Part shown: one piece after another, positions 4,290 through 60,069 of the stretch | Layout of the letters: the number at the start of each line of letters is the position of its first letter | Numbering within the stretch: position 1 is the first letter of the stretch | Assembly (NCBI RefSeq): GCF_048403405.1 | Contig: NZ_CP183129.1 | Source of the DNA: Escherichia coli | GTDB taxonomy: Bacteria; Pseudomonadota; Gammaproteobacteria; Enterobacterales; Enterobacteriaceae | Reading direction: 5' to 3' (one strand) | DNA: 64,000 nucleotides | Position numbers and translations under genes: made by a program | Notes under the pieces: model-generated | What the model saw: only the letters and a program-made list of their open reading frames with translations | The model's database searches: none | Told to the model about the DNA's origin: nothing

Positions 4290-5933
4290 ATGGAACTTCT
4301 TGTACTTGTCTGGCGGCAGTATCGCTGGCCATTTATCAGTGTGATGGCGCTAAGCCTCGCCAGTGCGGCATTAGGCATTGGCTTAATTGCTTTTATCAAT
4401 CAGCGCCTTATCGAAACGGCGGATACCAGTCTGCTGGTGTTGCCGGAGTTTCTGGGGTTATTGCTGCTGTTGATGGCCGTCACTCTCGGATCGCAACTGG
4501 CGCTCACCACTTTGGGGCATCACTTCGTTTACCGACTGCGTAGTGAATTTATCAAGCGAATTCTCGATACCCACGTCGAGCGCATTGAACAACTTGGTAG
4601 CGCCTCGTTGTTGGCGGGGTTAACCAGCGATGTGCGCAATATCACCATTGCTTTTGTGCGTCTGCCGGAACTGGTGCAGGGGATCATCCTCACTATCGGT
4701 TCCGCGGCGTACTTGTGGATGCTGTCGGGCAAAATGTTGCTGGTAACGGCTATCTGGATGGCAGTCACCATCTGGGGCGGTTTTATACTGGTGGCGCGGG
4801 TGTACAAACATATGGCGACCCTGCGTGAAACCGAAGACAAGCTGTACACGGATTTTCAAACCGTACTCGAAGGGCGCAAAGAGCTGACTCTGAACCGGGA
4901 ACGCGCCGAGTATGTGTTTAACAACCTCTACATTCCTGATGCGCAAGAGTATCGCCATCATATTATCCGCGCAGACACCTTCCATCTTAGTGCCGTGAAC
5001 TGGTCAAACATCATGATGCTGGGCGCAATCGGTCTGGTGTTCTGGATGGCGAACAGTCTCGGTTGGGCTGATACCAACGTTGCCGCGACCTATTCGTTGA
5101 CGCTGTTATTCCTGCGTACGCCGCTGCTTTCGGCGGTTGGTGCATTACCGACGCTGCTGACGGCGCAGGTGGCGTTTAACAAGCTGAACAAATTCGCACT
5201 CGCGCCTTTCAAAGCAGAGTTTCCGCGCCCACAGGCGTTTCCCAACTGGCAAACGCTGGAGCTGCGTAACGTGACGTTTGCTTATCAGGATAACGCGTTT
5301 TCCGTTGGGCCGATTAACCTCACCATCAAACGTGGCGAGCTGCTGTTTCTGATTGGCGGCAACGGTAGCGGAAAATCGACGCTGGCGATGTTGCTGACGG
5401 GCTTGTATCAGCCACAAAGCGGCGAAATCTTGCTGGATGGCAACCCTGTCAGCGGCGAACAACCGGAAGATTATCGCAAACTGTTTTCGGCAGTGTTTAC
5501 CGATGTCTGGCTGTTCGATCAACTGTTGGGGCCGGAGGGTCAACCCGCTAACCCGCAACTGATTGAGAAGTGGCTGGTGCAGCTGAAAATGGCTCATAAG
5601 CTTGAGTTAAGCAACGGGCGTATTGTTAACCTGAAGTTATCAAAAGGGCAGAAAAAACGCGTCGCGCTGTTGCTGGCGCTGGCAGAAGAACGCGATATTA
5701 TCCTGCTGGATGAATGGGCGGCGGATCAGGATCCACACTTCCGTCGTGAGTTTTATCAGGTGTTGCTGCCGCTGATGCAGGAGATGGGTAAAACTATTTT
5801 CGCCATCAGTCATGATGATCATTACTTTATCCACGCCGACCGCCTGCTGGAAATGCGCAACGGGCTACTTAGCGAGCTGACAGGCGAAGAGCGCGATGCT
5901 GCTTCGCGTGATGCCGTTGCCCGGACGGCATAA
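4290..5933 (+). CDS. yojI: ABC transporter (fused permease/ATPase), microcin J25 efflux protein YojI
   Basis: 547 aa; N-terminal TM helices, Walker [13 protein letters not shown] signature LSKGQKKR. Confidence 0.9.
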
Positions 5934-6138
5934 TATTTCGACGCTGACCTGGCGGACTGCTGCTGCCAGGTCAATATTCTAAAAATCCCTTCGTTTCTAA
6001 TAACCCTATAATTAATCAACGAAATTATAATGTTTCTAAAAATAGAATATAATTTATAAACATTATTTAAATGTTGTTACTTAAGTGTTACCGTTGATGC
6101 CGCGCAAATCTCACCTGCAATAAAGCGACTAAAAGTAA

Positions 6139-7796
<1,658 letters not shown>

Positions 7797-7797
<1 letters not shown>

Positions 7798-7930
7798 TGA
7801 TGTGCCACATCCGGCATGGTATGCCGGATGTGGCGTATGCTGATAAGACGCGCCAGCGTCGCATCAGGCAACCGGCTTGGGCGTTAGATGTCGGATGCGG
7901 CGTGACCGCCTTATCCGACCTACGGGGTGG
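7797..7930. repeat. REP/BIME palindromic repeat cluster between convergent mqo and eco
   Basis: Several imperfect palindromes of the GCCGGATG...CATCCGGC and GCCTGATGCGACGCTGGCGCGTCTTATCAG type, typical of enterobacterial REP elements. Confidence 0.6.
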
Positions 7931-7946
7931 AGCACTTCACGGCAGT

Positions 7947-8435
7947 TTAGCGGACTACCGCGTTGTCAATTTTCTCTTCCGCCTTCCAGATGCGGTACTT
8001 CACATCCACATTGTCTGGCGTATACACCACGATCGGCAGCTTGCTGTTATAACGCAGCATTCCGGCATCGCCCAGATACGCGGTGACAAATTTCTTCTCT
8101 TTCTTGCCATCCGGGCAGGCCATCATCGTCGAAACCGGGGAACTGACTTTATCAAAGACATAATAATCATAGCCCCAGCCTTCCAGCGTTTTGCTTTCCA
8201 GCTTCCCGCCGAGACGATGCAAATTGCAATCGACTTCCAGCGTCTGACCGATTAACAGTTCTACTTTCAGGGTAGATTCATCTTCTTGCGGGGTTAACTG
8301 AATCACCTGACGCTTCATGCCTTTTTCAGCTTGCGGATAAGGCGCGATTTTTTCCAGTGGCTGGACGCTCTCTGCCGCCCAGGCGGAGGTGGTGGCGAAA
8401 GCGGCAAACAATACTGCAGGTAGAATGGTCTTCAT
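7947..8435 (-). CDS. eco: Ecotin, periplasmic serine protease inhibitor
   Basis: 162 aa with signal peptide [20 protein letters not shown]. Confidence 0.9.
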
Positions 8436-49551: not shown

Positions 49552-51243
49552 ATGAAAACGCTGCTGATTATTGACGCTAATCTCGGTCAGGCACGCGCCT
49601 ATATGGCGAAGACCCTGCTGGGCGCGGCGGCGCGAAAAGCAAAACTGGAAATCATCGACAATCCGAACGACGCTGAAATGGCGATTGTTCTCGGTGATTC
49701 CATCCCGAACGACAGCGCGCTGAACGGTAAAAATGTCTGGCTGGGCGATATTTCCCGGGCAGTTGCGCACCCTGAGCTGTTCCTGAGTGAAGCCAAAGGC
49801 CATGCGAAACCTTACACTGCGCCGGTCGCTGCGACAGCACCGGTTGCCGCCAGCGGTCCGAAACGCGTAGTTGCGGTGACTGCTTGCCCGACTGGCGTAG
49901 CACACACCTTTATGGCGGCTGAAGCCATTGAAACCGAAGCGAAAAAACGTGGCTGGTGGGTGAAAGTTGAAACCCGTGGTTCGGTTGGCGCGGGTAATGC
50001 AATCACCCCTGAAGAAGTAGCCGCAGCAGATCTGGTGATTGTGGCGGCAGATATTGAAGTGGATCTGGCGAAATTTGCTGGTAAACCGATGTATCGCACC
50101 TCTACCGGTCTGGCGCTGAAGAAAACCGCGCAGGAACTGGATAAAGCGGTTGCTGAAGCAACGCCGTATGAACCGGCGGGCAAAACTCAAACAGCGACCA
50201 CTGAAGGTAAGAAAGAGAGTGCAGGCGCTTACCGTCACTTGCTGACGGGCGTCTCTTACATGCTGCCGATGGTCGTTGCAGGTGGTCTGTGTATCGCGCT
50301 TTCTTTTGCTTTTGGTATCGAAGCGTTTAAAGAGCCGGGTACGTTGGCTGCGGCGCTGATGCAGATTGGTGGTGGTTCAGCCTTTGCGTTGATGGTGCCG
50401 GTACTGGCAGGTTATATTGCCTTTTCCATTGCCGATCGTCCGGGTCTCACGCCGGGTCTGATTGGCGGTATGCTGGCGGTCAGCACCGGTTCTGGCTTCA
50501 TTGGCGGTATTATTGCGGGCTTCCTGGCTGGTTACATTGCGAAGTTAATCAGTACGCAATTGAAACTGCCACAGAGTATGGAGGCGCTGAAACCGATTCT
50601 GATCATTCCGCTAATTTCCAGTCTGGTGGTCGGTCTGGCGATGATCTACCTGATCGGTAAACCGGTTGCTGGCATTCTCGAAGGGTTGACTCACTGGCTG
50701 CAGACCATGGGGACTGCGAATGCGGTTCTGCTGGGGGCGATCCTCGGTGGCATGATGTGTACTGACATGGGCGGTCCGGTAAACAAAGCAGCGTACGCGT
50801 TCGGTGTGGGTCTGCTGAGTACTCAAACCTATGGCCCGATGGCGGCGATTATGGCGGCAGGTATGGTGCCACCGCTGGCAATGGGCCTGGCAACAATGGT
50901 GGCGCGTCGTAAATTCGACAAAGCGCAGCAGGAAGGTGGCAAAGCCGCTCTGGTATTGGGACTGTGCTTCATTTCGGAAGGTGCAATTCCGTTTGCTGCC
51001 CGTGATCCGATGCGAGTGCTGCCGTGCTGTATCGTGGGTGGGGCGCTGACTGGCGCAATCTCAATGGCGATTGGTGCGAAACTGATGGCACCGCACGGTG
51101 GTCTGTTTGTTCTGCTGATCCCTGGCGCGATTACGCCGGTATTGGGTTACCTGGTAGCCATTATTGCCGGTACGCTGGTGGCGGGTCTGGCCTATGCCTT
51201 CCTGAAACGTCCGGAAGTGGACGCAGTAGCGAAAGCAGCGTAA
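49552..51243 (+). CDS. fruA: Fructose PTS EIIB'BC component
   Basis: 563 aa; duplicated IIB domains plus IIC membrane domain. Confidence 0.95.
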   Translation: MKTLLIIDANLGQARAYMAKTLLGAAARKAKLEIIDNPNDAEMAIVLGDSIPNDSALNGKNVWLGDISRAVAHPELFLSEAKGHAKPYTAPVAATAPVAASGPKRVVAVTACPTGVAHTFMAAEAIETEAKKRGWWVKVETRGSVGAGNAITPEEVAAADLVIVAADIEVDLAKFAGKPMYRTSTGLALKKTAQELDKAVAEATPYEPAGKTQTATTEGKKESAGAYRHLLTGVSYMLPMVVAGGLCIALSFAFGIEAFKEPGTLAAALMQIGGGSAFALMVPVLAGYIAFSIADRPGLTPGLIGGMLAVSTGSGFIGGIIAGFLAGYIAKLISTQLKLPQSMEALKPILIIPLISSLVVGLAMIYLIGKPVAGILEGLTHWLQTMGTANAVLLGAILGGMMCTDMGGPVNKAAYAFGVGLLSTQTYGPMAAIMAAGMVPPLAMGLATMVARRKFDKAQQEGGKAALVLGLCFISEGAIPFAARDPMRVLPCCIVGGALTGAISMAIGAKLMAPHGGLFVLLIPGAITPVLGYLVAIIAGTLVAGLAYAFLKRPEVDAVAKAA

Positions 51244-51253
51244 TAAAAGGTGT

Positions 51254-51284
51254 GTTACAGGGCAGAAATTTCCTGCCCTGTAAC
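51254..51284 (+). terminator. Hairpin immediately downstream of fruA
   Basis: 12-bp perfect stem gttacagggcag/ctgccctgtaac with a 7-nt loop, followed by a moderately U-rich tract. Confidence 0.55.
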
Positions 51285-51398
51285 ATTTGATGCGCGCAAA
51301 GAGAATGACCGGTTTGTGAATGTAATTTTATGAATTTAAATGGTTTTATCTTTTAGTGGAAACCTGAAACTTTCATCAAACACTAAGGTTATTTCCTC

Positions 51399-51427
51399 AA
51401 GGGCAGATTAATTTCTGCCCTTTTTTA
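51399..51427 (+). terminator. Second rho-independent terminator about 150 bp downstream of fruA
   Basis: aagggcagattaatttctgccctttttt, a 9-bp stem plus T6. Confidence 0.65.
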
Positions 51428-51666
51428 GTGTTCCTGTTCTGTGCATCCCGTCACAAATTCCCCCTTTTTATAATTCAGGTATTTAATCGCGTTTTGTGAG
51501 CCTGCTCAAATCTGCCCATTTTGCCTCTCTGGCGGTAATTTACTTTACGTAAAACATGCATACTATGAGCACATGTTTAAATATGAACACATGTTTAAAC
51601 CGTCTTTGCAGTATCAATATTCTTGTGGATTGACAGGGTTGGTAATTTTTTACCAGAGGACGTGCT

Positions 51667-52608
51667 ATGCGCGAAAAGGATTATGTCGTAATTATAGGTT
51701 CGGCGAATATTGATGTCGCCGGATATTCACATGAATCATTAAATTATGCGGATTCAAATCCAGGTAAAATAAAATTTACGCCTGGTGGAGTAGGGCGCAA
51801 TATTGCACAAAACCTGGCGTTGCTGGGGAATAAAGCCTGGCTACTGAGCGCAGTAGGCAGTGATTTTTATGGTCAATCGTTGCTAACGCAAACCAATCAA
51901 TCTGGTGTTTATGTCGATAAATGCCTGATTGTGCCGGGAGAAAATACGTCGAGCTATTTATCATTACTCGATAATACCGGTGAAATGCTGGTTGCTATAA
52001 ATGACATGAATATTAGCAACGCTATTACAGCTGAATATCTCGCACAGCACGGTGAATTTATTCAGAGGGCAAAGGTCATTGTCGCGGACTGTAATATCAG
52101 TGAAGAGGCACTGGCATGGATTCTGGATAATGCCGCCAACGTACCCGTATTTGTCGATCCTGTTTCCGCGTGGAAATGTGTCAAAGTGCGCGACCGTCTA
52201 AATCAAATCCACACTCTCAAGCCAAACCGCCTTGAAGCGGAAACCCTGAGTGGGATTGCTTTGTCAGGGCGTGAAGATGTGGCAAAAGTTGCTGCCTGGT
52301 TCCATCAACATGGCCTGAACCGACTGGTATTGAGCATGGGCGGCGACGGCGTTTATTACAGTGATATCAGCGGTGAAAGTGGTTGGTCTGTGCCGATCAA
52401 AACCAATGTCATTAATGTTACCGGAGCGGGCGATGCCATGATGGCTGGACTTGCTTCGTGTTGGGTAGACGGAATGCCGTTTGCCGAATCTGTTCGTTTC
52501 GCACAGGGATGTTCGTCAATGGCGCTCTCCTGTGAATACACCAATAACCCCGATTTATCGATTGCCAACGTTATATCGTTAGTGGAGAACGCAGAATGTC
52601 TGAATTAA
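51667..52608 (+). CDS. psuK: Pseudouridine kinase PsuK (YeiC)
   Basis: 313 aa, PfkB family (GAGDAMMAG). Confidence 0.9.
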   Translation: MREKDYVVIIGSANIDVAGYSHESLNYADSNPGKIKFTPGGVGRNIAQNLALLGNKAWLLSAVGSDFYGQSLLTQTNQSGVYVDKCLIVPGENTSSYLSLLDNTGEMLVAINDMNISNAITAEYLAQHGEFIQRAKVIVADCNISEEALAWILDNAANVPVFVDPVSAWKCVKVRDRLNQIHTLKPNRLEAETLSGIALSGREDVAKVAAWFHQHGLNRLVLSMGGDGVYYSDISGESGWSVPIKTNVINVTGAGDAMMAGLASCWVDGMPFAESVRFAQGCSSMALSCEYTNNPDLSIANVISLVENAECLN

Positions 52609-53534
52609 AAATTTCCCCTGAATTATTACAAATTTCCCCGGAAGTGCAGGACGCTTTAAAAAACAAAAAACCGGTTGTGGCGCTGGAATCGACCATTATT
52701 TCTCACGGGATGCCGTTCCCACAAAATGCCCAGACCGCAATTGAAGTTGAAGAAACTATTCGTAAACAGGGCGCTGTACCTGCCACTATCGCCATTATTG
52801 GCGGCGTGATGAAAGTGGGTTTAAGCAAAGAAGAAATTGAATTGCTGGGTCGTGAAGGGCATAACGTGACCAAAGTTAGTCGTCGCGATTTACCTTTTGT
52901 TGTTGCCGCCGGAAAAAATGGCGCAACTACCGTTGCTTCAACGATGATTATTGCGGCGCTTGCCGGAATTAAAGTATTTGCCACCGGGGGAATTGGTGGT
53001 GTGCATCGCGGGGCGGAACATACCTTCGATATTTCTGCCGATTTGCAAGAACTGGCAAATACTAATGTCACCGTTGTTTGTGCCGGTGCAAAATCTATTC
53101 TCGATTTAGGATTAACAACAGAATATTTAGAAACCTTCGGTGTGCCGTTAATTGGCTATCAGACAAAAGCGCTGCCTGCGTTTTTCTGCCGTACCAGCCC
53201 ATTTGAAGTTAGTATTCGCCTTGATAGTCCCACGGAAATCGCTCGTGCAATGGCGGTGAAATGGCAAAGCGGTCTGAACGGTGGCCTGGTGGTGGCAAAT
53301 CCGATCCCGGAACAGTTTGCGATGCCGGAACACACTATCAATGCGGCGATCGATCAGGCGGTAGCTGAAGCTGAAGAGCAGGGCGTTATTGGTAAAGAAA
53401 GCACACCGTTCCTGCTGGCTCGTGTTGCTGAACTGACTGGCGGTGACAGCCTGAAATCCAACATCCAGCTGGTGTTCAACAACGCCATTCTGGCGAGCGA
53501 AATTGCCAAAGAATATCAGCGTCTCGCGGGTTAA
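52596..53534 (+). CDS. psuG: Pseudouridine-5'-phosphate glycosidase PsuG (YeiN)
   Basis: 312 aa; start overlaps psuK. Confidence 0.9.
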   Translation: MSELKISPELLQISPEVQDALKNKKPVVALESTIISHGMPFPQNAQTAIEVEETIRKQGAVPATIAIIGGVMKVGLSKEEIELLGREGHNVTKVSRRDLPFVVAAGKNGATTVASTMIIAALAGIKVFATGGIGGVHRGAEHTFDISADLQELANTNVTVVCAGAKSILDLGLTTEYLETFGVPLIGYQTKALPAFFCRTSPFEVSIRLDSPTEIARAMAVKWQSGLNGGLVVANPIPEQFAMPEHTINAAIDQAVAEAEEQGVIGKESTPFLLARVAELTGGDSLKSNIQLVFNNAILASEIAKEYQRLAG

Positions 53535-53627
53535 TTTCTGACGGGCAGAAAGCCGTCGCCCGTACTCATCAAGCATACCAAAACCTGGCGCTGACGCCGG
53601 GTTTACTGGCATGAAGGGAAAATCATT

Positions 53628-54878
53628 ATGGATATAATGAGAAGTGTTGTGGGGATGGTGGTGTTACTGGCAATAGCATTTCTGTTGTCAGTGAATAAAA
53701 AGGGCATCAGTTTGCGCACGGTTGGAGCCGCACTGCTGCTGCAAATCGCTATTGGTGGCATCATGCTCTACTTCCCACCGGGAAAATGGGCAGTAGAACA
53801 GGCGGCATTAGGCGTTCATAAAGTGATGTCTTACAGTGATGCCGGTAGCGCCTTTATTTTTGGTTCATTGGTCGGGCCGAAAATGGATGTCCTGTTTGAT
53901 GGCGCGGGCTTTATCTTCGCCTTTCGCGTACTCCCGGCGATTATCTTCGTCACTGCGCTCATCAGCCTGCTGTACTACATTGGCGTGATGGGACTGCTGA
54001 TTCGCATTCTTGGCAGCATTTTCCAGAAAGCTCTCAACATCAGCAAAATCGAATCTTTTGTTGCGGTTACCACTATTTTCCTCGGGCAAAATGAGATCCC
54101 GGCGATCGTTAAACCGTTTATCGATCGCATGAATCGCAACGAGTTGTTTACCGCAATTTGTAGCGGGATGGCGTCCATTGCTGGTTCGATGATGATTGGT
54201 TATGCCGGAATGGGCGTACCAATTGACTACCTGTTAGCGGCATCGCTGATGGCGATCCCTGGCGGGATTTTGTTTGCACGTATTCTTAGCCCGGCAACCG
54301 AGCCTTCGCAGGTCACATTTGAAAATCTGTCGTTCAGCGAAACACCGCCAAAAAGCTTTATCGAAGCAGCGGCGAGCGGTGCGATGACCGGGTTGAAAAT
54401 CGCCGCTGGTGTGGCGACGGTGGTAATGGCGTTTGTCGCAATTATTGCGCTGATTAATGGCATTATCGGCGGAATTGGCGGCTGGTTTGGTTTTACCAAT
54501 GCTTCTCTGGAAAGTATTTTTGGCTATGTGCTGGCACCGCTGGCGTGGATCATGGGTGTGGACTGGAGTGATGCCAATCTTGCGGGTAGCCTGATTGGGC
54601 AGAAACTGGCGATTAACGAATTCGTCGCTTACCTGAGTTTCTCCCCATACCTGCAAACGGGCGGCACGCTGGAAGTGAAAACCATTGCGATTATCTCCTT
54701 TGCGCTTTGTGGTTTTGCTAACTTTGGTTCTATCGGTGTTGTCGTTGGCGCATTTTCGGCTATTTCGCCTAAACGCGCACCGGAAATCGCCCAGCTTGGT
54801 TTACGGGCGCTGGCAGCAGCAACGCTTTCCAACCTGATGAGCGCGACCATTGCCGGGTTCTTTATTGGTTTAGCTTGA
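53628..54878 (+). CDS. psuT: Nucleoside transporter PsuT (YeiM), CNT family
   Basis: 416 aa; near-identical paralog of nupX (56815-58065). Confidence 0.9.
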   Translation: MDIMRSVVGMVVLLAIAFLLSVNKKGISLRTVGAALLLQIAIGGIMLYFPPGKWAVEQAALGVHKVMSYSDAGSAFIFGSLVGPKMDVLFDGAGFIFAFRVLPAIIFVTALISLLYYIGVMGLLIRILGSIFQKALNISKIESFVAVTTIFLGQNEIPAIVKPFIDRMNRNELFTAICSGMASIAGSMMIGYAGMGVPIDYLLAASLMAIPGGILFARILSPATEPSQVTFENLSFSETPPKSFIEAAASGAMTGLKIAAGVATVVMAFVAIIALINGIIGGIGGWFGFTNASLESIFGYVLAPLAWIMGVDWSDANLAGSLIGQKLAINEFVAYLSFSPYLQTGGTLEVKTIAIISFALCGFANFGSIGVVVGAFSAISPKRAPEIAQLGLRALAAATLSNLMSATIAGFFIGLA

Positions 54879-54884
54879 GTTTCA

Positions 54885-54935
54885 TTGCCGGATGTACGCG
54901 CTTATTTAGCGTCACATCCGGCAATCGCTCTATTG
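54885..54935. repeat. REP-like palindrome / bidirectional terminator between psuT and yeiL
   Basis: ttgccggatgt ... acatccggcaa inverted repeat. Confidence 0.5.
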
Positions 54936-54945
54936 CAAATAATTT

Positions 54946-55605
54946 TTACTGCATCATCCCTGAGAATTTATTTTCCGGGTCCATCTCCAGTGCCAGTCCT
55001 GACAACTGCTTTCTGTTTTTAATTAGATACCCTTTCTTGCTTTTAATTAATAAACCGTCGTGAATGAATTGCGCTAGAACATATAAAAGATGTCGATAAG
55101 AAACGCCTAAATACTCTGCCGCTTGCGTATGCTTTTCGTGATAAAGATCACCTTCCTGCGAGAGTAATATAAAAGCTGCCAGGCGATTCACTAACGGAAA
55201 TGATTGATTCTGAGTTAAAGAAACAATATTGCGATAATTTTTATGGCTTAAGGTGACGCAGAGTTTTCGTAAAAATAGCGTGTCGTTTAATAACAGCGGA
55301 CGGTAATGTTTCATAGGGAGCGCAAGGCACCAACACTCTTCAATAGCCTGTACCGCACGCGGTTCATGGTCTTTGTCGATTAACTCAATCTCGCCAATAA
55401 AACAGGGAGCGGCAAAGAAATCGATCAGCGACACGCGACCATTAGCTAGCGTGGCGTAAAGCCTGGCGCGGCCTCGCGTCAGGTAAAACAGCCAGGACGG
55501 CTGTTGCCCTTCCTGCACAATGTAGTCACGCGCTAAAAAATGAAACAGCCGCGTATCGGCTGAAACATCCGTTGAAAAGCAATCCTTAAACGCGGATTCA
55601 CTCAT
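54946..55605 (-). CDS. yeiL: Crp/Fnr-family transcriptional regulator YeiL
   Basis: 219 aa from the internal ATG ([10 protein letters not shown]...); cNMP-binding-like domain plus C-terminal HTH. Confidence 0.85.
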
Positions 55606-55773
55606 CAATTGCTGCTTAAGGTCATTATTGTGGATTTCTTTCACGATGTTTATCCGCTATGAGATTTCTCATATTTAGCATACTTACGCTGTTGTTAAGA
55701 TTCAATCATCGGCCCGGTCGAATTTTCTTTGCTGTAGAAAAAATAACGCAACTGGAAACAGAGGAAATAAACA

Positions 55774-56715
55774 ATGGAAAAGAGAAAAATTATTCTGGAT
55801 TGTGATCCGGGTCATGATGATGCTATTGCCATAATGATGGCAGCGAAACATCCGGCAATAGATTTATTAGGCATCACCATTGTGGCGGGTAATCAGACGC
55901 TTGATAAAACATTAATTAATGGCCTGAATGTTTGCCAGAAACTGGAGATTAATGTTCCGGTTTATGCGGGGATGCCACAGCCCATTATGCGTCAACAAAT
56001 CGTTGCCGATAATATTCACGGTGAAACCGGACTGGATGGCCCGGTATTCGAGCCGCTGACCCGCCAGGCAGAAAGCACTCATGCGGTGAAATATATCATC
56101 GATACCCTGATGGCAAGCGATGGCGATATCACTCTGGTGCCGGTTGGTCCGCTTTCAAATATCGCGGTGGCAATGCGCATGCAGCCCGCAATCCTGCCGA
56201 AAATCCGTGAAATTGTGCTGATGGGCGGCGCTTACGGTACTGGCAACTTTACGCCATCCGCCGAGTTCAACATCTTTGCTGACCCGGAAGCCGCACGCGT
56301 GGTGTTCACCTCCGGCGTTCCGTTGGTGATGATGGGCCTCGATCTCACCAACCAGACCGTTTGCACCCCGGACGTGATTGCCCGGATGGAAAGGGCAGGC
56401 GGCCCTGCCGGAGAGCTGTTCAGCGACATCATGAACTTCACTCTCAAAACCCAGTTCGAAAACTATGGCCTGGCTGGCGGCCCGGTGCACGACGCCACCT
56501 GCATCGGTTATCTGATCAACCCTGATGGCATTAAAACCCAGGATATGTACGTCGAAGTGGATGTTAACAGTGGCCCTTGCTATGGGCGTACCGTCTGCGA
56601 CGAGCTGGGCGTTCTTGGCAAGCCAGCCAATACCAAAGTCGGCATCACTATTGATACCGACTGGTTCTGGGGCTTAGTCGAAGAGTGCGTGCGCGGCTAC
56701 ATCAAAACCCATTAA
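55774..56715 (+). CDS. rihB: Pyrimidine-specific ribonucleoside hydrolase RihB (YeiK)
   Basis: 313 aa; N-terminal DCDPGHDDA nucleoside hydrolase motif. Confidence 0.9.
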
Positions 56716-56728
56716 GTGTTGATAACAA

Positions 56729-56762
56729 GCCGGGCCGGTATCGCAAGATGCAGGCCCGGCTA
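56729..56762 (+). terminator. Hairpin downstream of rihB
   Basis: gccgggccggtatcgcaagatgcaggcccggc followed by TATTT. Confidence 0.55.
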
Positions 56763-56814
56763 TTTCTGATGGGCAGAAAGCCGTCGCCCAAAATGACATG
56801 AAGAGATAATAACT

Positions 56815-58065
56815 ATGGATGTCATGAGAAGTGTTCTGGGAATGGTTGTATTGCTGGCAATTGCGTTTTTGCTGTCAGTAAACAAGAAGAAGATCAGCCT
56901 GCGTACCGTTGGCGCGGCGTTAGTGTTACAGGTCGTGATTGGCGGCATTATGCTTTGGTTACCACCAGGGCGTTGGGTCGCAGAAAAAGTCGCTTTTGGC
57001 GTGCATAAAGTGATGGCGTACAGCGATGCAGGTAGCGCATTTATCTTTGGTTCTCTGGTCGGACCGAAAATGGATACCTTATTTGATGGCGCAGGATTTA
57101 TCTTTGGTTTCAGGGTATTACCGGCAATTATCTTCGTTACAGCACTGGTGAGTATTCTCTACTACATCGGTGTGATGGGGATCTTAATTCGCATTCTCGG
57201 CGGTATCTTCCAGAAAGCATTAAATATCAGCAAGATCGAGTCATTCGTCGCGGTCACTACCATTTTCCTCGGGCAAAACGAAATTCCGGCAATCGTCAAA
57301 CCCTTTATCGATCGGCTGAATCGCAATGAATTATTTACAGCGATTTGTAGTGGCATGGCCTCGATTGCTGGTTCGACAATGATTGGTTACGCTGCACTGG
57401 GCGTGCCTGTGGAATATCTGCTGGCGGCATCGTTAATGGCGATCCCCGGCGGGATCTTGTTTGCCCGCCTGTTAAGCCCGGCTACCGAATCTTCGCAGGT
57501 TTCCTTTAATAACCTCTCTTTCACCGAAACTCCGCCAAAAAGCTTTATCGAAGCAGCGGCGAGCGGTGCGATGACCGGACTGAAAATCGCCGCAGGTGTG
57601 GCGACAGTGGTGATGGCATTTGTTGCAATAATTGCGTTGATTAACGGTATTATCGGCGGCGTTGGCGGCTGGTTTGGTTTTGAACATGCCTCGCTGGAGT
57701 CCATTTTAGGTTACCTGTTGGCTCCACTGGCGTGGGTGATGGGGGTTGACTGGAGTGATGCGAATCTTGCCGGGAGTTTGATTGGACAGAAACTGGCGAT
57801 TAATGAATTTGTCGCTTACCTCAATTTCTCACCTTATCTGCAAACAGCTGGCACTCTGGATGCTAAAACCGTGGCGATTATTTCCTTCGCGTTGTGCGGT
57901 TTCGCTAACTTTGGTTCTATCGGGGTGGTGGTGGGGGCGTTTTCTGCGGTTGCGCCACACCGTGCGCCGGAAATCGCCCAGCTTGGTTTACGCGCGCTGG
58001 CGGCGGCGACACTTTCTAACCTGATGAGTGCCACCATTGCAGGATTCTTTATTGGCTTAGCGTAG
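56815..58065 (+). CDS. nupX: Nucleoside permease NupX (YeiJ), CNT family
   Basis: 416 aa; paralog of psuT. Confidence 0.9.
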   Translation: MDVMRSVLGMVVLLAIAFLLSVNKKKISLRTVGAALVLQVVIGGIMLWLPPGRWVAEKVAFGVHKVMAYSDAGSAFIFGSLVGPKMDTLFDGAGFIFGFRVLPAIIFVTALVSILYYIGVMGILIRILGGIFQKALNISKIESFVAVTTIFLGQNEIPAIVKPFIDRLNRNELFTAICSGMASIAGSTMIGYAALGVPVEYLLAASLMAIPGGILFARLLSPATESSQVSFNNLSFTETPPKSFIEAAASGAMTGLKIAAGVATVVMAFVAIIALINGIIGGVGGWFGFEHASLESILGYLLAPLAWVMGVDWSDANLAGSLIGQKLAINEFVAYLNFSPYLQTAGTLDAKTVAIISFALCGFANFGSIGVVVGAFSAVAPHRAPEIAQLGLRALAAATLSNLMSATIAGFFIGLA

Positions 58066-58120
58066 TGCGCGATTTATGAGCCGGATAAGACGCGGTCAAG
58101 CGTCGAATCCGGCAAGATTG

Positions 58121-59209
58121 TTACACCATCGGCACTAATGAAAGCGCGTTATCGGCAGACAGGGTAGGGTTGTTTAAGCTGCCGCTGGCGCGTGAAATTG
58201 CCGCGCAGGCCATCGCAAAACGGGCGCTGTCACGGAAATTGTTTCCTTCCAGAAAGCTATATACCAGGCCCGCCATAAAACCATCGTCAGCACCAAAACT
58301 GTCTACTGTCGTATGCGCTGGTGCGGTCAGCAAAAATTGTTCTCCATCCTTTTCGCTGCAATAAACTGACTCATCGGGCAAATAAACAAACAGTTGCTGA
58401 ACGCCTTGCTGATGCAACGCATTCACTGCGGTATTACGGTCAGCATCGCTGGTGATCGCCTGTCCCCATAAAATTTCCAGCTCCGGTAAAGTGGGTTTCA
58501 GGGTGTGAATATGCGCCAGCCAGTGTTTGATTTTGCCCGCTTTGAATTCTGAAACGGTATCGACAAACACCGGGATTTCATCAGCGAGGGTAAAGACCCA
58601 CTCCAGCGCCTCGGCTGTCAGGTTGCAATCAGCCAGTACCACGCCCGCATGACGAAGTAAATCGCGCGACCCGTTCAGTAGTTGCGGTGTCAACTGTTCC
58701 AGCAGATGGGTATCGTTAATCGCCAGCACGGTTTGATCGTCTCGATTGGCAATTGCCAGATACGTCGATGTGCTTTGACCATGTAAACGAACGCAGCCGG
58801 AGACATTCACGCCGGCGCGGCGCGTTTCTTCCAGGAGCATTTCGCCATAAAAGTCATCGCCAATCACTGAAAGCAAATGGACGTCGCGGCCTAACAGCGC
58901 CAGATTGTGGGCGATATTGCGTCCAACGCCGCCTGCCGAGCAATGAATTGTACCGGGATGAGAAGCCGCTTGCGGGTAACGGATATCCGCCATCCCGCGA
59001 ATATCCATATTGATTGTCCCCACCACTACGCAGTATTCCTGCTCGGTGAGAATGTAACCTTTGCCTTTAATCCGACCTTTGCGCATTAAATCCATAATAT
59101 GCGCCGCAACGCGCGAACGGCTGATTTGCAGCATATCAGCAATTTCGTTCTGCTGAATCAGCGGGTTACGCCGTAAAATTGCAAGGATCTCCTTCTCCCG
59201 GTTGTTCAT
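58121..59209 (-). CDS. yeiI: PfkB-family sugar/nucleoside kinase with N-terminal HTH, YeiI
   Basis: 362 aa; N-terminal winged-helix (MNNREKEILAILRRNPLIQQNEIADML), C-terminal PfkB motif GADDGFMAG. Confidence 0.85.
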   Translation of the reverse strand: MNNREKEILAILRRNPLIQQNEIADMLQISRSRVAAHIMDLMRKGRIKGKGYILTEQEYCVVVGTINMDIRGMADIRYPQAASHPGTIHCSAGGVGRNIAHNLALLGRDVHLLSVIGDDFYGEMLLEETRRAGVNVSGCVRLHGQSTSTYLAIANRDDQTVLAINDTHLLEQLTPQLLNGSRDLLRHAGVVLADCNLTAEALEWVFTLADEIPVFVDTVSEFKAGKIKHWLAHIHTLKPTLPELEILWGQAITSDADRNTAVNALHQQGVQQLFVYLPDESVYCSEKDGEQFLLTAPAHTTVDSFGADDGFMAGLVYSFLEGNNFRDSARFAMACAAISRASGSLNNPTLSADNALSLVPMV

Positions 59210-59211
59210 CT

Positions 59212-60069
59212 TCAGGCTACCGCTTTTTCAGTTTGTTGCGCTTTCAGCCAGGCGATCTCTTCTGCCCAGATATCCGGGTTGATGGTTTCAAGGATCAGCG
59301 GAATGCCGTCGAAACGGTCGTCCTGCATGATCCAGCGGAACGCATCATGACCGATATTGCCTTCACCGAGGCTATGATGGCGGTCAACGCGGCTGCCAAA
59401 GGTGCTTTTCGCATCGTTAAGGTGCATCCCGCGCAGATACTTAAAGCCGACAATACGGGCAAAATCCGCGAACGTTTTCTCGCATTCGGCTGGAGTACGC
59501 AAATCATACCCGGCAGCAAAAGCATGGCAGGTATCAATGCAGACGCCGACGCGGGATTTATCTTCCACGCCGTCGATAATCGCCGCGAGATGTTCGAATT
59601 TAAACCCTAAGTTACTGCCCTGACCGGCGGTGTTTTCAATCACCGCTGTCACACCTTGAGTTTTATCCAGCGCAATGTTGATGGATTCGGCAATACGCGC
59701 AAGGCAATCCTCTTCTGAAATCTGCATCAGATGGCTGCCAGGGTGGAAGTTGAGCAAAGAAAGCCCCAGCTGTTCGCAACGCTGCATTTCATCTATAAAC
59801 GCATCGCGCGATTTTTCCAGAGCTTCAGCGACCGGATGTCCGAGGTTAATCAGATAACTGTCGTGGGGAAGAATTTGCGCCGATGTGTAGTGATATTTTT
59901 CACAGGCGGCTTTGAATTCATCGATGGTTTGCGTCGTGAGCGGTGCGGCACGCCACTGACGTTGGTTTTTGGTGAACAAGGCAAACGCGGTTGCGTCGAT
60001 TTCGGCGGCGCGAATTGCGGCATTTGCCAGACCGCCAGCAGCACTAACGTGCGCTCCAATGTATTTCAT
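59212..60069 (-). CDS. nfo: Endonuclease IV
   Basis: 285 aa, [14 protein letters not shown]...; AP-endonuclease TIM-barrel family. Confidence 0.95.

Follow-up and report, generated by a model that had tools for sequence, protein, structure and literature searches.

Two nucleoside transporter genes of Escherichia coli, psuT and nupX, carry in their leaders a small hairpin of the form YGGGC-N11-GCCCR, here called hp1. Both genes lie in the 64,000 nucleotides (nt) of E. coli DNA that were analyzed, referred to below as the window (NCBI RefSeq assembly GCF_048403405.1, contig NZ_CP183129.1). Comparison of leaders across genera indicates that hp1 is a genuine, conserved and previously undescribed small RNA motif. 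The explanation preferred here, to which a probability of roughly 0.6 is assigned, is that hp1 would be a cis element of the transporter cistron, acting at the level of RNA, maintained by selection and probably recognized in a sequence-specific manner.

The hp1 hairpin and its conservation

The window holds two copies of hp1:

53542-53562, + strand: hp1 of the psuT leader, CGGGC-AGAAAGCCGUC-GCCCG, with a 5-bp stem, an 11-nt loop and an optional sixth pair, A53541-U53563
56770-56790, + strand: hp1 of the nupX leader, UGGGC-AGAAAGCCGUC-GCCCA, its outer pair being U-A where psuT has C-G

The psuT copy begins 7 nt past the psuG stop codon, scores 38.1 bits with a covariance model (CM) of the motif, and has a hairpin energy of -8.4 kcal/mol and a pair probability of 0.96. 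The nupX copy scores 36.3 bits, and its 3′ end lies 24 nt before the nupX AUG. Both belong to a longer leader motif that the two genes share. The leader strings reported in the initial annotation at 53536 and 56764 were found there, and the 27-mer TTTCTGAYGGGCAGAAAGCCGTCGCCC occurs within the 64 kb only at 53535 and 56763 (<=3 mismatches allowed; 0 occurrences expected by chance).

Homologous loci were drawn from reference genomes, contigs encoding close homologs, and plasmids. In every PsuT/NupX-clade copy examined hp1 stands upstream of the start codon, with the exception of the Entomohabitans psuT leader. The main alignment (A2) comprises 37 distinct leaders from about ten genera, plasmids and metagenomes; a 23-sequence version is called A1. 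The metagenome leaders were fetched by a coding-start pattern that is blind to hp1 and limited to GAC or GAA second codons. The pattern used to extract hp1 was permissive and allowed mismatched combinations, so that pairing was not forced. Lack of conservation outside this strain had been named in the initial annotation as one result that would count against the leader element; it is preserved well beyond the strain, with hp1 present in about ten genera.

In the 37 leaders the six-pair helix was 94.6% paired, and its inner five pairs were standard except for one A.C. Pair 1 was C-G in 27 sequences, U-A in 6 and U.G in 4, pair 2 was G-C in 34 and A-U in 3, and pair 3 was G-C in 35 with single cases of G.U and A.C. 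The sixth, outer pair was A-U, G-C or G.U in 26 of the 37. Compensatory double changes were seen at two to three stem pairs, and the covariation score and percentage paired were reached by none of 500 shuffles. When the 3′ partner was slid as a control, pairing fell from 94.6% to 33-55%. RNAalifold, run unguided, gave the same helix, which was the sole helix predicted on full-length leaders. The loop has the form N-G-N-N-N-G-C-N-G-U-N and was 11 nt long in all 37 sequences. With respect to an extension of the helix into the loop, G2.U10 can pair in all, and N3.G9 fails in 11 of 23 (after an A.C mismatch). As a helix with compensatory changes that precedes a single gene family, hp1 qualifies as a conserved structured RNA motif, with few independent substitution events.

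Selection was gauged from sequence pairs averaging 52.5% identity at third codon positions. In these diverged pairs the hp1 stem was 90% identical and loop positions 2, 6, 7, 9 and 10 were 91%, 91%, 83%, 96% and 100% identical, as compared with 89% for codon positions 1 and 2 together, 26-50% for the remaining loop positions and 33-41% for the 12-nt flanks. A further hairpin, hp0, is found between rihB and hp1 in the NupX-type leaders of each genus. Because the hp1 stem and five loop positions are conserved while hp0 shares no sequence between genera, hp1 is judged to be constrained in sequence as well as in structure.

The motif is specific to these genes. A CM built from A2 was run over 1.19 Mb (the window plus 90 loci), and all matches with E<0.001 lay just 5′ of PsuT/NupX-clade genes on the sense strand; in the window no match of a second type was found beyond the psuT and nupX leaders. 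An Rfam 15 scan of 51000-59500, on both strands at E<=10, returned nothing relevant. The nupX leader had no match in it, and the lone match over 53531-53605 was isrJ, with 18.9 bits against a gathering threshold of 37 and E = 8. A literature search found no paper mentioning hp1 or the leader. The idea that hp1 mimics an rRNA or tRNA hairpin was rejected, since the whole rrn operon gave <=10 bits as compared with 30-41 bits at true sites. The gene upstream of hp1 is psuG in some leaders and rihB in others, and the hairpin is independent of a local yeiI or yeiL, being present at some loci without yeiI and at others without yeiL.

The rest of the leader contains the following features:

53563-53583, + strand: conserved C/A-rich spacer after hp1, UACUCAUCAAGCAUACCAAAA, family consensus AUAUCAGACAUACCAAAA (leader alignments)
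53581-53604, + strand: hp2 of the psuT leader, AAACCUGGCG-CUGA-CGCCGGGUUU (leader folds)
56729-56760, + strand: hp0, GCCGGGCC-N16-GGCCCGGC followed by UAUUUCU, between the rihB stop and hp1

The stem of hp2 varies across genera (CCCGGC/GCCGGG, CUGAACCAG/CUGGUUCAG, CCCGGUA/UACCGGG). hp2 belongs to psuT-type leaders and to a single leader of NupX type; E. coli nupX lacks it, and it is missing in several leaders. It is terminator-like, yet only three U follow the stem in the window; the number is 0-4 overall and 3-4 in most genera, and the plasmid and Entomohabitans versions have no trailing U. In the psuT and nupX leaders hp1 is followed by UACUCAUC and AAAUGACA, respectively, neither with the U-rich tract of a terminator. 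A terminator scan called neither hp1 nor hp2, and hp2 is at most a weak candidate. The nupX leader in the window has lost the C/A-rich tail and hp2 and has kept hp1; another E. coli strain has a 36-nt version. Across leaders the distance from hp1 to the Shine-Dalgarno sequence ranges from 24 to 67 nt. In psuT-type leaders the interval between the psuG stop and hp1 is 7-12 nt; in nupX-type leaders hp1 lies 17-51 nt from the rihB stop.

Several other candidates in the leader were examined and rejected. For a pseudoknot of the loop with the tail or with the Shine-Dalgarno region, inspection of the alignments showed neither consistent complementarity nor covariation. Alternative pairing between hp1 and hp2, as in an attenuator, could involve 4-5 nt at most and was not conserved. 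An internal promoter before hp1 found no support in a scan, which gave no promoter-like site on the + strand, and the sequences upstream differ between psuG and rihB. An upstream open reading frame (ORF) in the leader (AUGAAGGG...) was not conserved in other genera. Readthrough of the psuG stop codon would give a short in-frame extension that is disrupted by indels in other genera.

Two further features overlap the psuT leader. A predicted hairpin, UCAUUAU-GGAU-AUAAUGA (53622-53639), surrounds the psuT start codon; its arms are the conserved AUCAUU before the AUG and codons 3-5 (AUA AUG AGA). It was seen in most leader folds, but the E. coli coding start had been appended to every leader folded. 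An antisense ORF of 154 amino acids (53148-53612, - strand) begins in the leader and extends backward across the 3′ portion of psuG. Both E. coli and Citrobacter (Citrobacter locus 5521-5985) have this ORF, which is probably a by-product of the psuG reading frame.

Possible roles of hp1

It is very likely that hp1 functions as a hairpin in RNA. In the preferred explanation it would act in the mRNA, as part of the transporter cistron of the psuKGT and rihB-nupX transcripts, and would be recognized sequence-specifically by a protein, a small RNA or possibly a ligand. Through this recognition the transporter message would acquire a stability, processing or translation independent of the upstream enzyme genes. 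Sequence-specific recognition is suggested because five loop bases and the stem are conserved while the neighboring hairpins have turned over fully; considered separately, recognition of hp1 by a specific partner is a tentative proposal with somewhat less than an even chance. A more detailed version, in which hp1 and the C/A-rich tail form the recognition element of an undescribed post-transcriptional control of PsuT/NupX, either as a tiny nucleoside- or pseudouridine-sensing RNA or as the operator of an RNA-binding regulator, is decidedly doubtful.

A number of observations weigh against the preferred explanation. The covariation derives from few independent events, in some two to four lineages. 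In the Entomohabitans psuT leader a longer, unrelated hairpin occupies the place of hp1, and the more distant psuG-transporter spacers of Serratia, Hafnia and Bartonella hold other hairpins. Neither yeiI nor yeiL, the local candidates for a trans-acting factor, is present at all hp1 loci. An inverted repeat of fixed spacing could in principle be a DNA site. The published differential RNA sequencing (dRNA-seq) and 3′-end tables contain no sense-strand start or 3′ end at the psuT or nupX leaders (PMC7815308), which probably reflects that these genes are scarcely expressed in laboratory media.

In the main rival explanation hp1 has no specific partner and serves between cistrons simply as a decay barrier or processing signal, of which presence and stability alone would matter. 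It would, for example, protect the 3′ end of the psuKG message, or the 5′ end of a transporter message after processing. The exchange in Entomohabitans psuT and the unrelated hairpins in distant loci are easier to reconcile with such a generic structural role than with sequence-specific recognition. Every psuKGT operon examined has a hairpin after psuG, the distant operons of Serratia, Hafnia and Bartonella with their unrelated sequences among them; hp1 itself starts within 12 nt of the psuG stop in psuT-type leaders, and its stem energy, -7 to -8 kcal/mol, is ordinary. A generic hairpin would be expected to drift in sequence as hp0 has done, yet the stem and five loop bases of hp1 are conserved like non-synonymous sites, and its loop length is invariant in 37 sequences. 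NupX-type leaders, moreover, keep hp1 although rihB has a hairpin of its own. This rival is considered unlikely. Still less probable is that CGGGC-N11-GCCCG is a DNA operator, bound by a factor such as YeiI or YeiL (CRP/FNR family) and controlling an internal transporter promoter. The perfect 5-bp inverted repeat, its invariant spacing and the two candidate regulators within the locus would suit an operator, and a peak of RpoS holoenzyme inside psuG in genomic SELEX (systematic evolution of ligands by exponential enrichment) makes an internal promoter conceivable (PMC5493296). However, the centers of the half-sites are 16 bp apart and would thus face opposite sides of the helix. Five hp1 sequences contain U.G or G.U pairs, which are C.A or A.C mismatches on the other strand and spoil DNA symmetry but not RNA pairing, and compensatory double changes are what an RNA helix predicts. 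hp1 is also found at loci without yeiI (Buttiauxella, Klebsiella spallanzanii, Superficieibacter) and without yeiL (Citrobacter, Klebsiella, Leclercia). A conserved palindrome in the psuK promoter (CACATGT type) is unrelated to hp1, and the scan found no sigma-70-like + strand promoter near either leader. An operator is accordingly rated as very unlikely.

Two proposals concern other uses of RNA structure. The initial annotation had drawn two alternative stems in the shared leader, GACGG/CCGTC and TTCTG/CAGAA, from which hp1 is distinct, and in one model the motif would act as a regulatory toggle between them. Both can be drawn in E. coli; in the psuT leader GACGG/CCGUC has an energy of -8.5 kcal/mol, and nupX, with U in place of C, still forms a G.U pair. 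Both fail the comparative pairing test on 23 leaders. GACGG/CCGTC was paired in 71% of cells, with no double change and with 496 of 500 shuffles as good, and TTCTG/CAGAA in 62%, just marginally above shuffles. The two stems need 5′ flank bases found in Escherichia only, their 5′ arms being absent in Citrobacter, Klebsiella and Enterobacter, and RNAalifold predicts neither. A toggle is thought to be scarcely credible. Nearly as improbable is a small aptamer, formed by hp1 and the C/A-rich tail, that would sense a pyrimidine nucleoside or pseudouridine in the manner of a riboswitch. The layout recalls very small pseudoknot aptamers (preQ1-I): a stem of 5 bp carries a loop that is always 11 nt long and has conserved bases, the A-rich tail is conserved too, and the gene context fits, since the genes encode transporters of the presumed ligand. 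Against an aptamer, Rfam gave no match even at an E-value of 10, and no loop-tail covariation was seen on inspection. The tail is deleted from the nupX leader of this strain while hp1 stays, the variable distance to the Shine-Dalgarno sequence leaves no obvious expression platform, and there is but one short conserved helix.

Some enterobacterial stem-loops are known to control one cistron of a transcript, among them the ompA 5′ hairpin, the hairpin of papBA processing and the intercistronic repetitive extragenic palindromic (REP) hairpin of malEFG. hp1 resembles them in being small and G+C-rich, in lying in an untranslated spacer of a polycistronic message before a membrane-protein cistron, and in being selected. 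In contrast, those hairpins are generic and without conserved loops, whereas hp1 has five conserved loop positions and a fixed length and is common to two paralogs behind unrelated upstream genes. In pyrE attenuation the stop codon of the upstream gene rph lies near the attenuator hairpin, so that translation controls termination. The psuG stop 7-12 nt before hp1, the terminator-like hp2 that comes next and the pyrimidine pathway are reminiscent of this arrangement. It differs in that no U tract follows hp1, the U run of hp2 is only 3-4 long and several leaders lack hp2, nupX-type hp1 lies 17-51 nt from the rihB stop, and no alternative pairing of hp1 and hp2 is conserved. A third comparison is with RNA operator hairpins that have conserved loops, such as the PyrR binding loop, lambda boxB and the SECIS apical loop recognized by the winged-helix protein SelB. 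There too a short stem presents conserved loop bases, and hp1 is far better conserved than the hairpins around it. The Rfam models, including that for PyrR, gave no match, however, and the loops are dissimilar.

The locus, its modules and candidate regulators

The region corresponds to the fruA-nfo interval of E. coli, in reversed orientation relative to K-12. Its genes are:

51667-52608, + strand: psuK, upstream of psuT (ORF list, RefSeq names, Pfam)
52596-53534, + strand: psuG, upstream of psuT (ORF list, RefSeq names, Pfam)
53628-54878, + strand: psuT, CNT-family nucleoside transporter, 416 amino acids
54946-55644, - strand: yeiL, part of the 54946-56715 segment lost on psuT x nupX recombination
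55774-56715, + strand: rihB, part of the same segment
56815-58065, + strand: nupX, CNT-family nucleoside transporter, 416 amino acids, paralog of psuT
58121-59209, - strand: yeiI, a fusion of a winged-helix domain (HTH_24) with a PfkB kinase; nfo comes next

Gene names were taken from the RefSeq annotation of E. coli genomes that are 100% identical over the stretch, and the Pfam domains concur. The names first given to psuT, nupX and their neighbors agree with that annotation, and the two + strand ORFs of 416 codons were confirmed at these coordinates. PsuT and NupX each match Nucleos_tra2_N, Gate and Nucleos_tra2_C well over the Pfam cut-offs, as members of the NupC/CNT family do, and RefSeq names both NupC/NupG family CNT transporters. 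In one study PsuT gave no uptake of uridine, cytidine or xanthosine (PMC11241209). A search of the literature on the regulation of psuT, nupX, yeiL, rihB and yeiI found no paper on the control of psuKGT or rihB-nupX.

The two transporter genes align without gaps at 79.5% DNA and 89% protein identity; by codon position the values are 88%, 96% and 55% (54.7% at third positions). Their description as near-identical was therefore an overstatement, and the synonymous sites are estimated to be close to saturation. In a neighbor-joining tree of the transporters, with Serratia and Hafnia homologs (73% identity) as the outgroup, the NupX proteins of seven genera (E. coli, Kluyvera, Buttiauxella, K. spallanzanii, Entomohabitans, Enterobacter hormaechei and Superficieibacter) form one clade. 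Because this clade is monophyletic across genera and PsuT lies outside it, the tree indicates that psuT and nupX are old paralogs within the Enterobacteriaceae, with orthologs in many genera. A recent duplication is at odds with the divergence at third positions and with the grouping of NupX by clade rather than by genome. The ancestral duplication would have copied the transporter gene along with the psuG-psuT intergenic leader.

The initial annotation regarded the locus as a duplicated salvage module arranged around yeiL. This is not supported, since the transporter and leader alone are duplicated. PsuG (Indigoidine_A) and RihB (IU_nuc_hydro) belong to unrelated Pfam families, and PsuK and the kinase part of YeiI are paralogs with 38% identity. 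Comparison with other genera indicates that two separate modules, psuK-psuG-T-yeiI and yeiL-rihB-T (T, transporter), make up the E. coli locus as a mosaic, and that only the transporter and its leader are common to both. The modules are arranged as follows:

psuK-psuG-T, then yeiI-nfo directly: Citrobacter, Klebsiella michiganensis, Leclercia, Enterobacter sp., Escherichia albertii, E. coli plasmid
yeiL-rihB-T alone, without yeiI: Buttiauxella, K. spallanzanii, Superficieibacter
Module order of E. coli: Kluyvera, Entomohabitans
Opposite module order: Enterobacter hormaechei

Synteny across the other genera shows that outside E. coli yeiI accompanies psuKGT and not rihB-nupX. The single transporter of Citrobacter was examined as a possible PsuT/NupX hybrid, and its block-wise identity to the two Kluyvera copies gave a noisy signal. 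On one metagenome contig (locus 384-2981) rihB and a transporter are followed by a convergent yeiL, which could represent two tandem yeiL-rihB-T modules or another module order. The psuK-psuG-transporter module is mobile and occurs on E. coli plasmid p98228 (3069-7379), a Salmonella IncFIB plasmid and a Bartonella plasmid. On p98228 it also carries yeiI and is flanked by inovirus Gp2-family genes. hp1 is kept in the E. coli and Salmonella plasmid copies, and the Bartonella plasmid copy has an unrelated hairpin.

Several features of the locus bear on its regulation apart from hp1. The psuK promoter region (51495-51510, 51567-51599) contains a CRP-like site (TGTGAgcctgcTCAAA) and two copies of (G/A)(A/G)CACATGTTTAAA. 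In the same place a clean palindrome, GAGCACATGTTT-N5-7-AAACATGTGCTC, stands in Citrobacter, Leclercia, Enterobacter and Enterobacter hormaechei, with AAACACATGTTCACATTCAAACATGTGTTT in Klebsiella. This palindrome is a candidate operator of psuKGT, unrelated to hp1. YeiI has GADD in place of the GAGD motif of PsuK, and its gene adjoins psuKGT in Citrobacter, Klebsiella, Leclercia, E. albertii and plasmid p98228; YeiI may be a pseudouridine-responsive regulator and not a second kinase. Past fruA two terminator-like hairpins (51253-51285 and 51399-51422) have in common the string GGGCAGA, with which the hp1 loop region begins as well. An orphan start site in the spacer after fruA is listed in a published supplement (PMC7815308), and a small transcript may lie between these two hairpins. 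The dRNA-seq data of the same study include a start site antisense to the 3′ end of yeiL and reading toward rihB (PMC7815308). Its position, about 54946-55118 on the + strand of the window, was estimated by applying an inferred offset to the coordinate in the publication. This start could belong to the rihB-nupX promoter or to an antisense RNA to yeiL.

Recombination and gene conversion between the copies

The psuT and nupX direct repeats had been proposed as a substrate for recombination that would delete yeiL-rihB, and five natural E. coli hybrids of this kind were found. In a synthetic query, the end of psuG and psuT was placed immediately before the DNA downstream of nupX and yeiI. Coverage of this query was >=80% in 6 of 5,426 complete E. 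coli genomes, five of which have the order psuK-psuG-single transporter-yeiI-nfo. Their hosts were a mink in China and humans in Mali, Laos, the USA and South Korea. Scored at 107 positions discriminating psuT from nupX, the hybrids have a PsuT-like 5′ end and a NupX-like 3′ part, and the 3′ flank is NupX-type in all five. Crossovers fall at nt 709-791, 921-971 and 971-1048, and after 1048 in two genomes, which makes at least three different intervals. Since the crossover intervals and the flanking alleles differ, the hybrids are judged to be separate events. The process has the features of unequal crossing-over between diverged tandem paralogs: direct repeats of 1.25 kb, about 80% identical, flank a 1.9-kb segment, and natural hybrids have their crossovers in the better-conserved 3′ third. 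There is nothing unusual in it, and its frequency is low (5 of 5,426).

Eight E. coli genomes lack yeiL-rihB entirely, and at least one other deletion was mediated by an insertion sequence. In E. coli TUM2820 (locus 6044-7951) the IS5-family element ISKpn26 replaces the region from mid-yeiL to mid-nfo, and psuG has an internal stop. In E. albertii the same type of junction is fixed, with a PsuT body and the 3′ flank of E. coli nupX. This state is either ancestral, E. coli having gained yeiL-rihB-T by the reverse reaction, or derived.

Other changes affect the 3′ side of the locus. In many E. coli genomes nupX is a 66-nt stub formed by internal deletion at a TAA microhomology (strain FP4, locus 5715-5780). 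The stub was present in all seven sampled rows of an 80-90% identity band of about 969 records, and hp1 is retained before it with a single change in the loop (AGAGAGCCGUC). Some E. coli genomes match the window precisely up to the nupX stop and no further (query position 5468); their yeiI side is different or absent. REP-type palindromes stand 3′ of both transporter genes (54888-54925 and 58079-58124) and give weak naRNA4 matches in Rfam. K-12 has a longer, double REP region after nupX, which accounts for a 51-nt length difference among hybrid loci.

Exchange without deletion is suggested by two tracts of high identity:

53535-53562, + strand: 28-nt tract with a 27/28 match to 56763-56790, consisting of hp1 and the Escherichia-specific 5′ flank UUUCUGA
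54345-54391, + strand: 47 nt, the longest run identical between psuT and nupX; its partner is 57532-57578

The E. coli psuT and nupX leaders have an identical loop, AGAAAGCCGUC, and an identical flank, AUUUCUGA. In genomes outside Escherichia the two paralog leaders are unlike each other in both loop and flanks; the loops are AGUCUGCGGUC as opposed to AGUGAGCAGUA in Kluyvera and AGUUUGCGGUC as opposed to GAUCCCGGGUU in Enterobacter hormaechei. The loop of E. coli nupX resembles those of the PsuT clade and differs from all other NupX-clade loops. Because its loop and flank match psuT, unlike the NupX-clade leaders elsewhere, the likeness of the two leaders within E. coli probably arose by short gene conversion between them in the Escherichia lineage. 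Within the genes, the 36-mer quoted in the initial annotation is present in both copies as part of the 47-nt run. This run is strain-specific, with a local identity of 0.95 here as compared with 0.83 in K-12, which suggests a short conversion tract. In K-12 the last 50 codons of psuT and nupX have 82% third-position identity, and the 3′ ends are the most polymorphic part of the genes between strains.

The control of pseudouridine and pyrimidine-nucleoside uptake in E. coli is essentially unstudied. The comparative picture replaces the idea of a duplicated module and points to YeiI as the likely regulator of psuKGT. The psuT/nupX locus is a clean natural case in which diverged tandem paralogs drive gene conversion and deletion, visible in population genomes. 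The findings as a whole are a modest, well-supported addition that does not overturn current understanding. As a defined sequence present in about ten genera, hp1 would provide a handle for reporter and pull-down work, and it is a candidate for entry in an RNA-family database.

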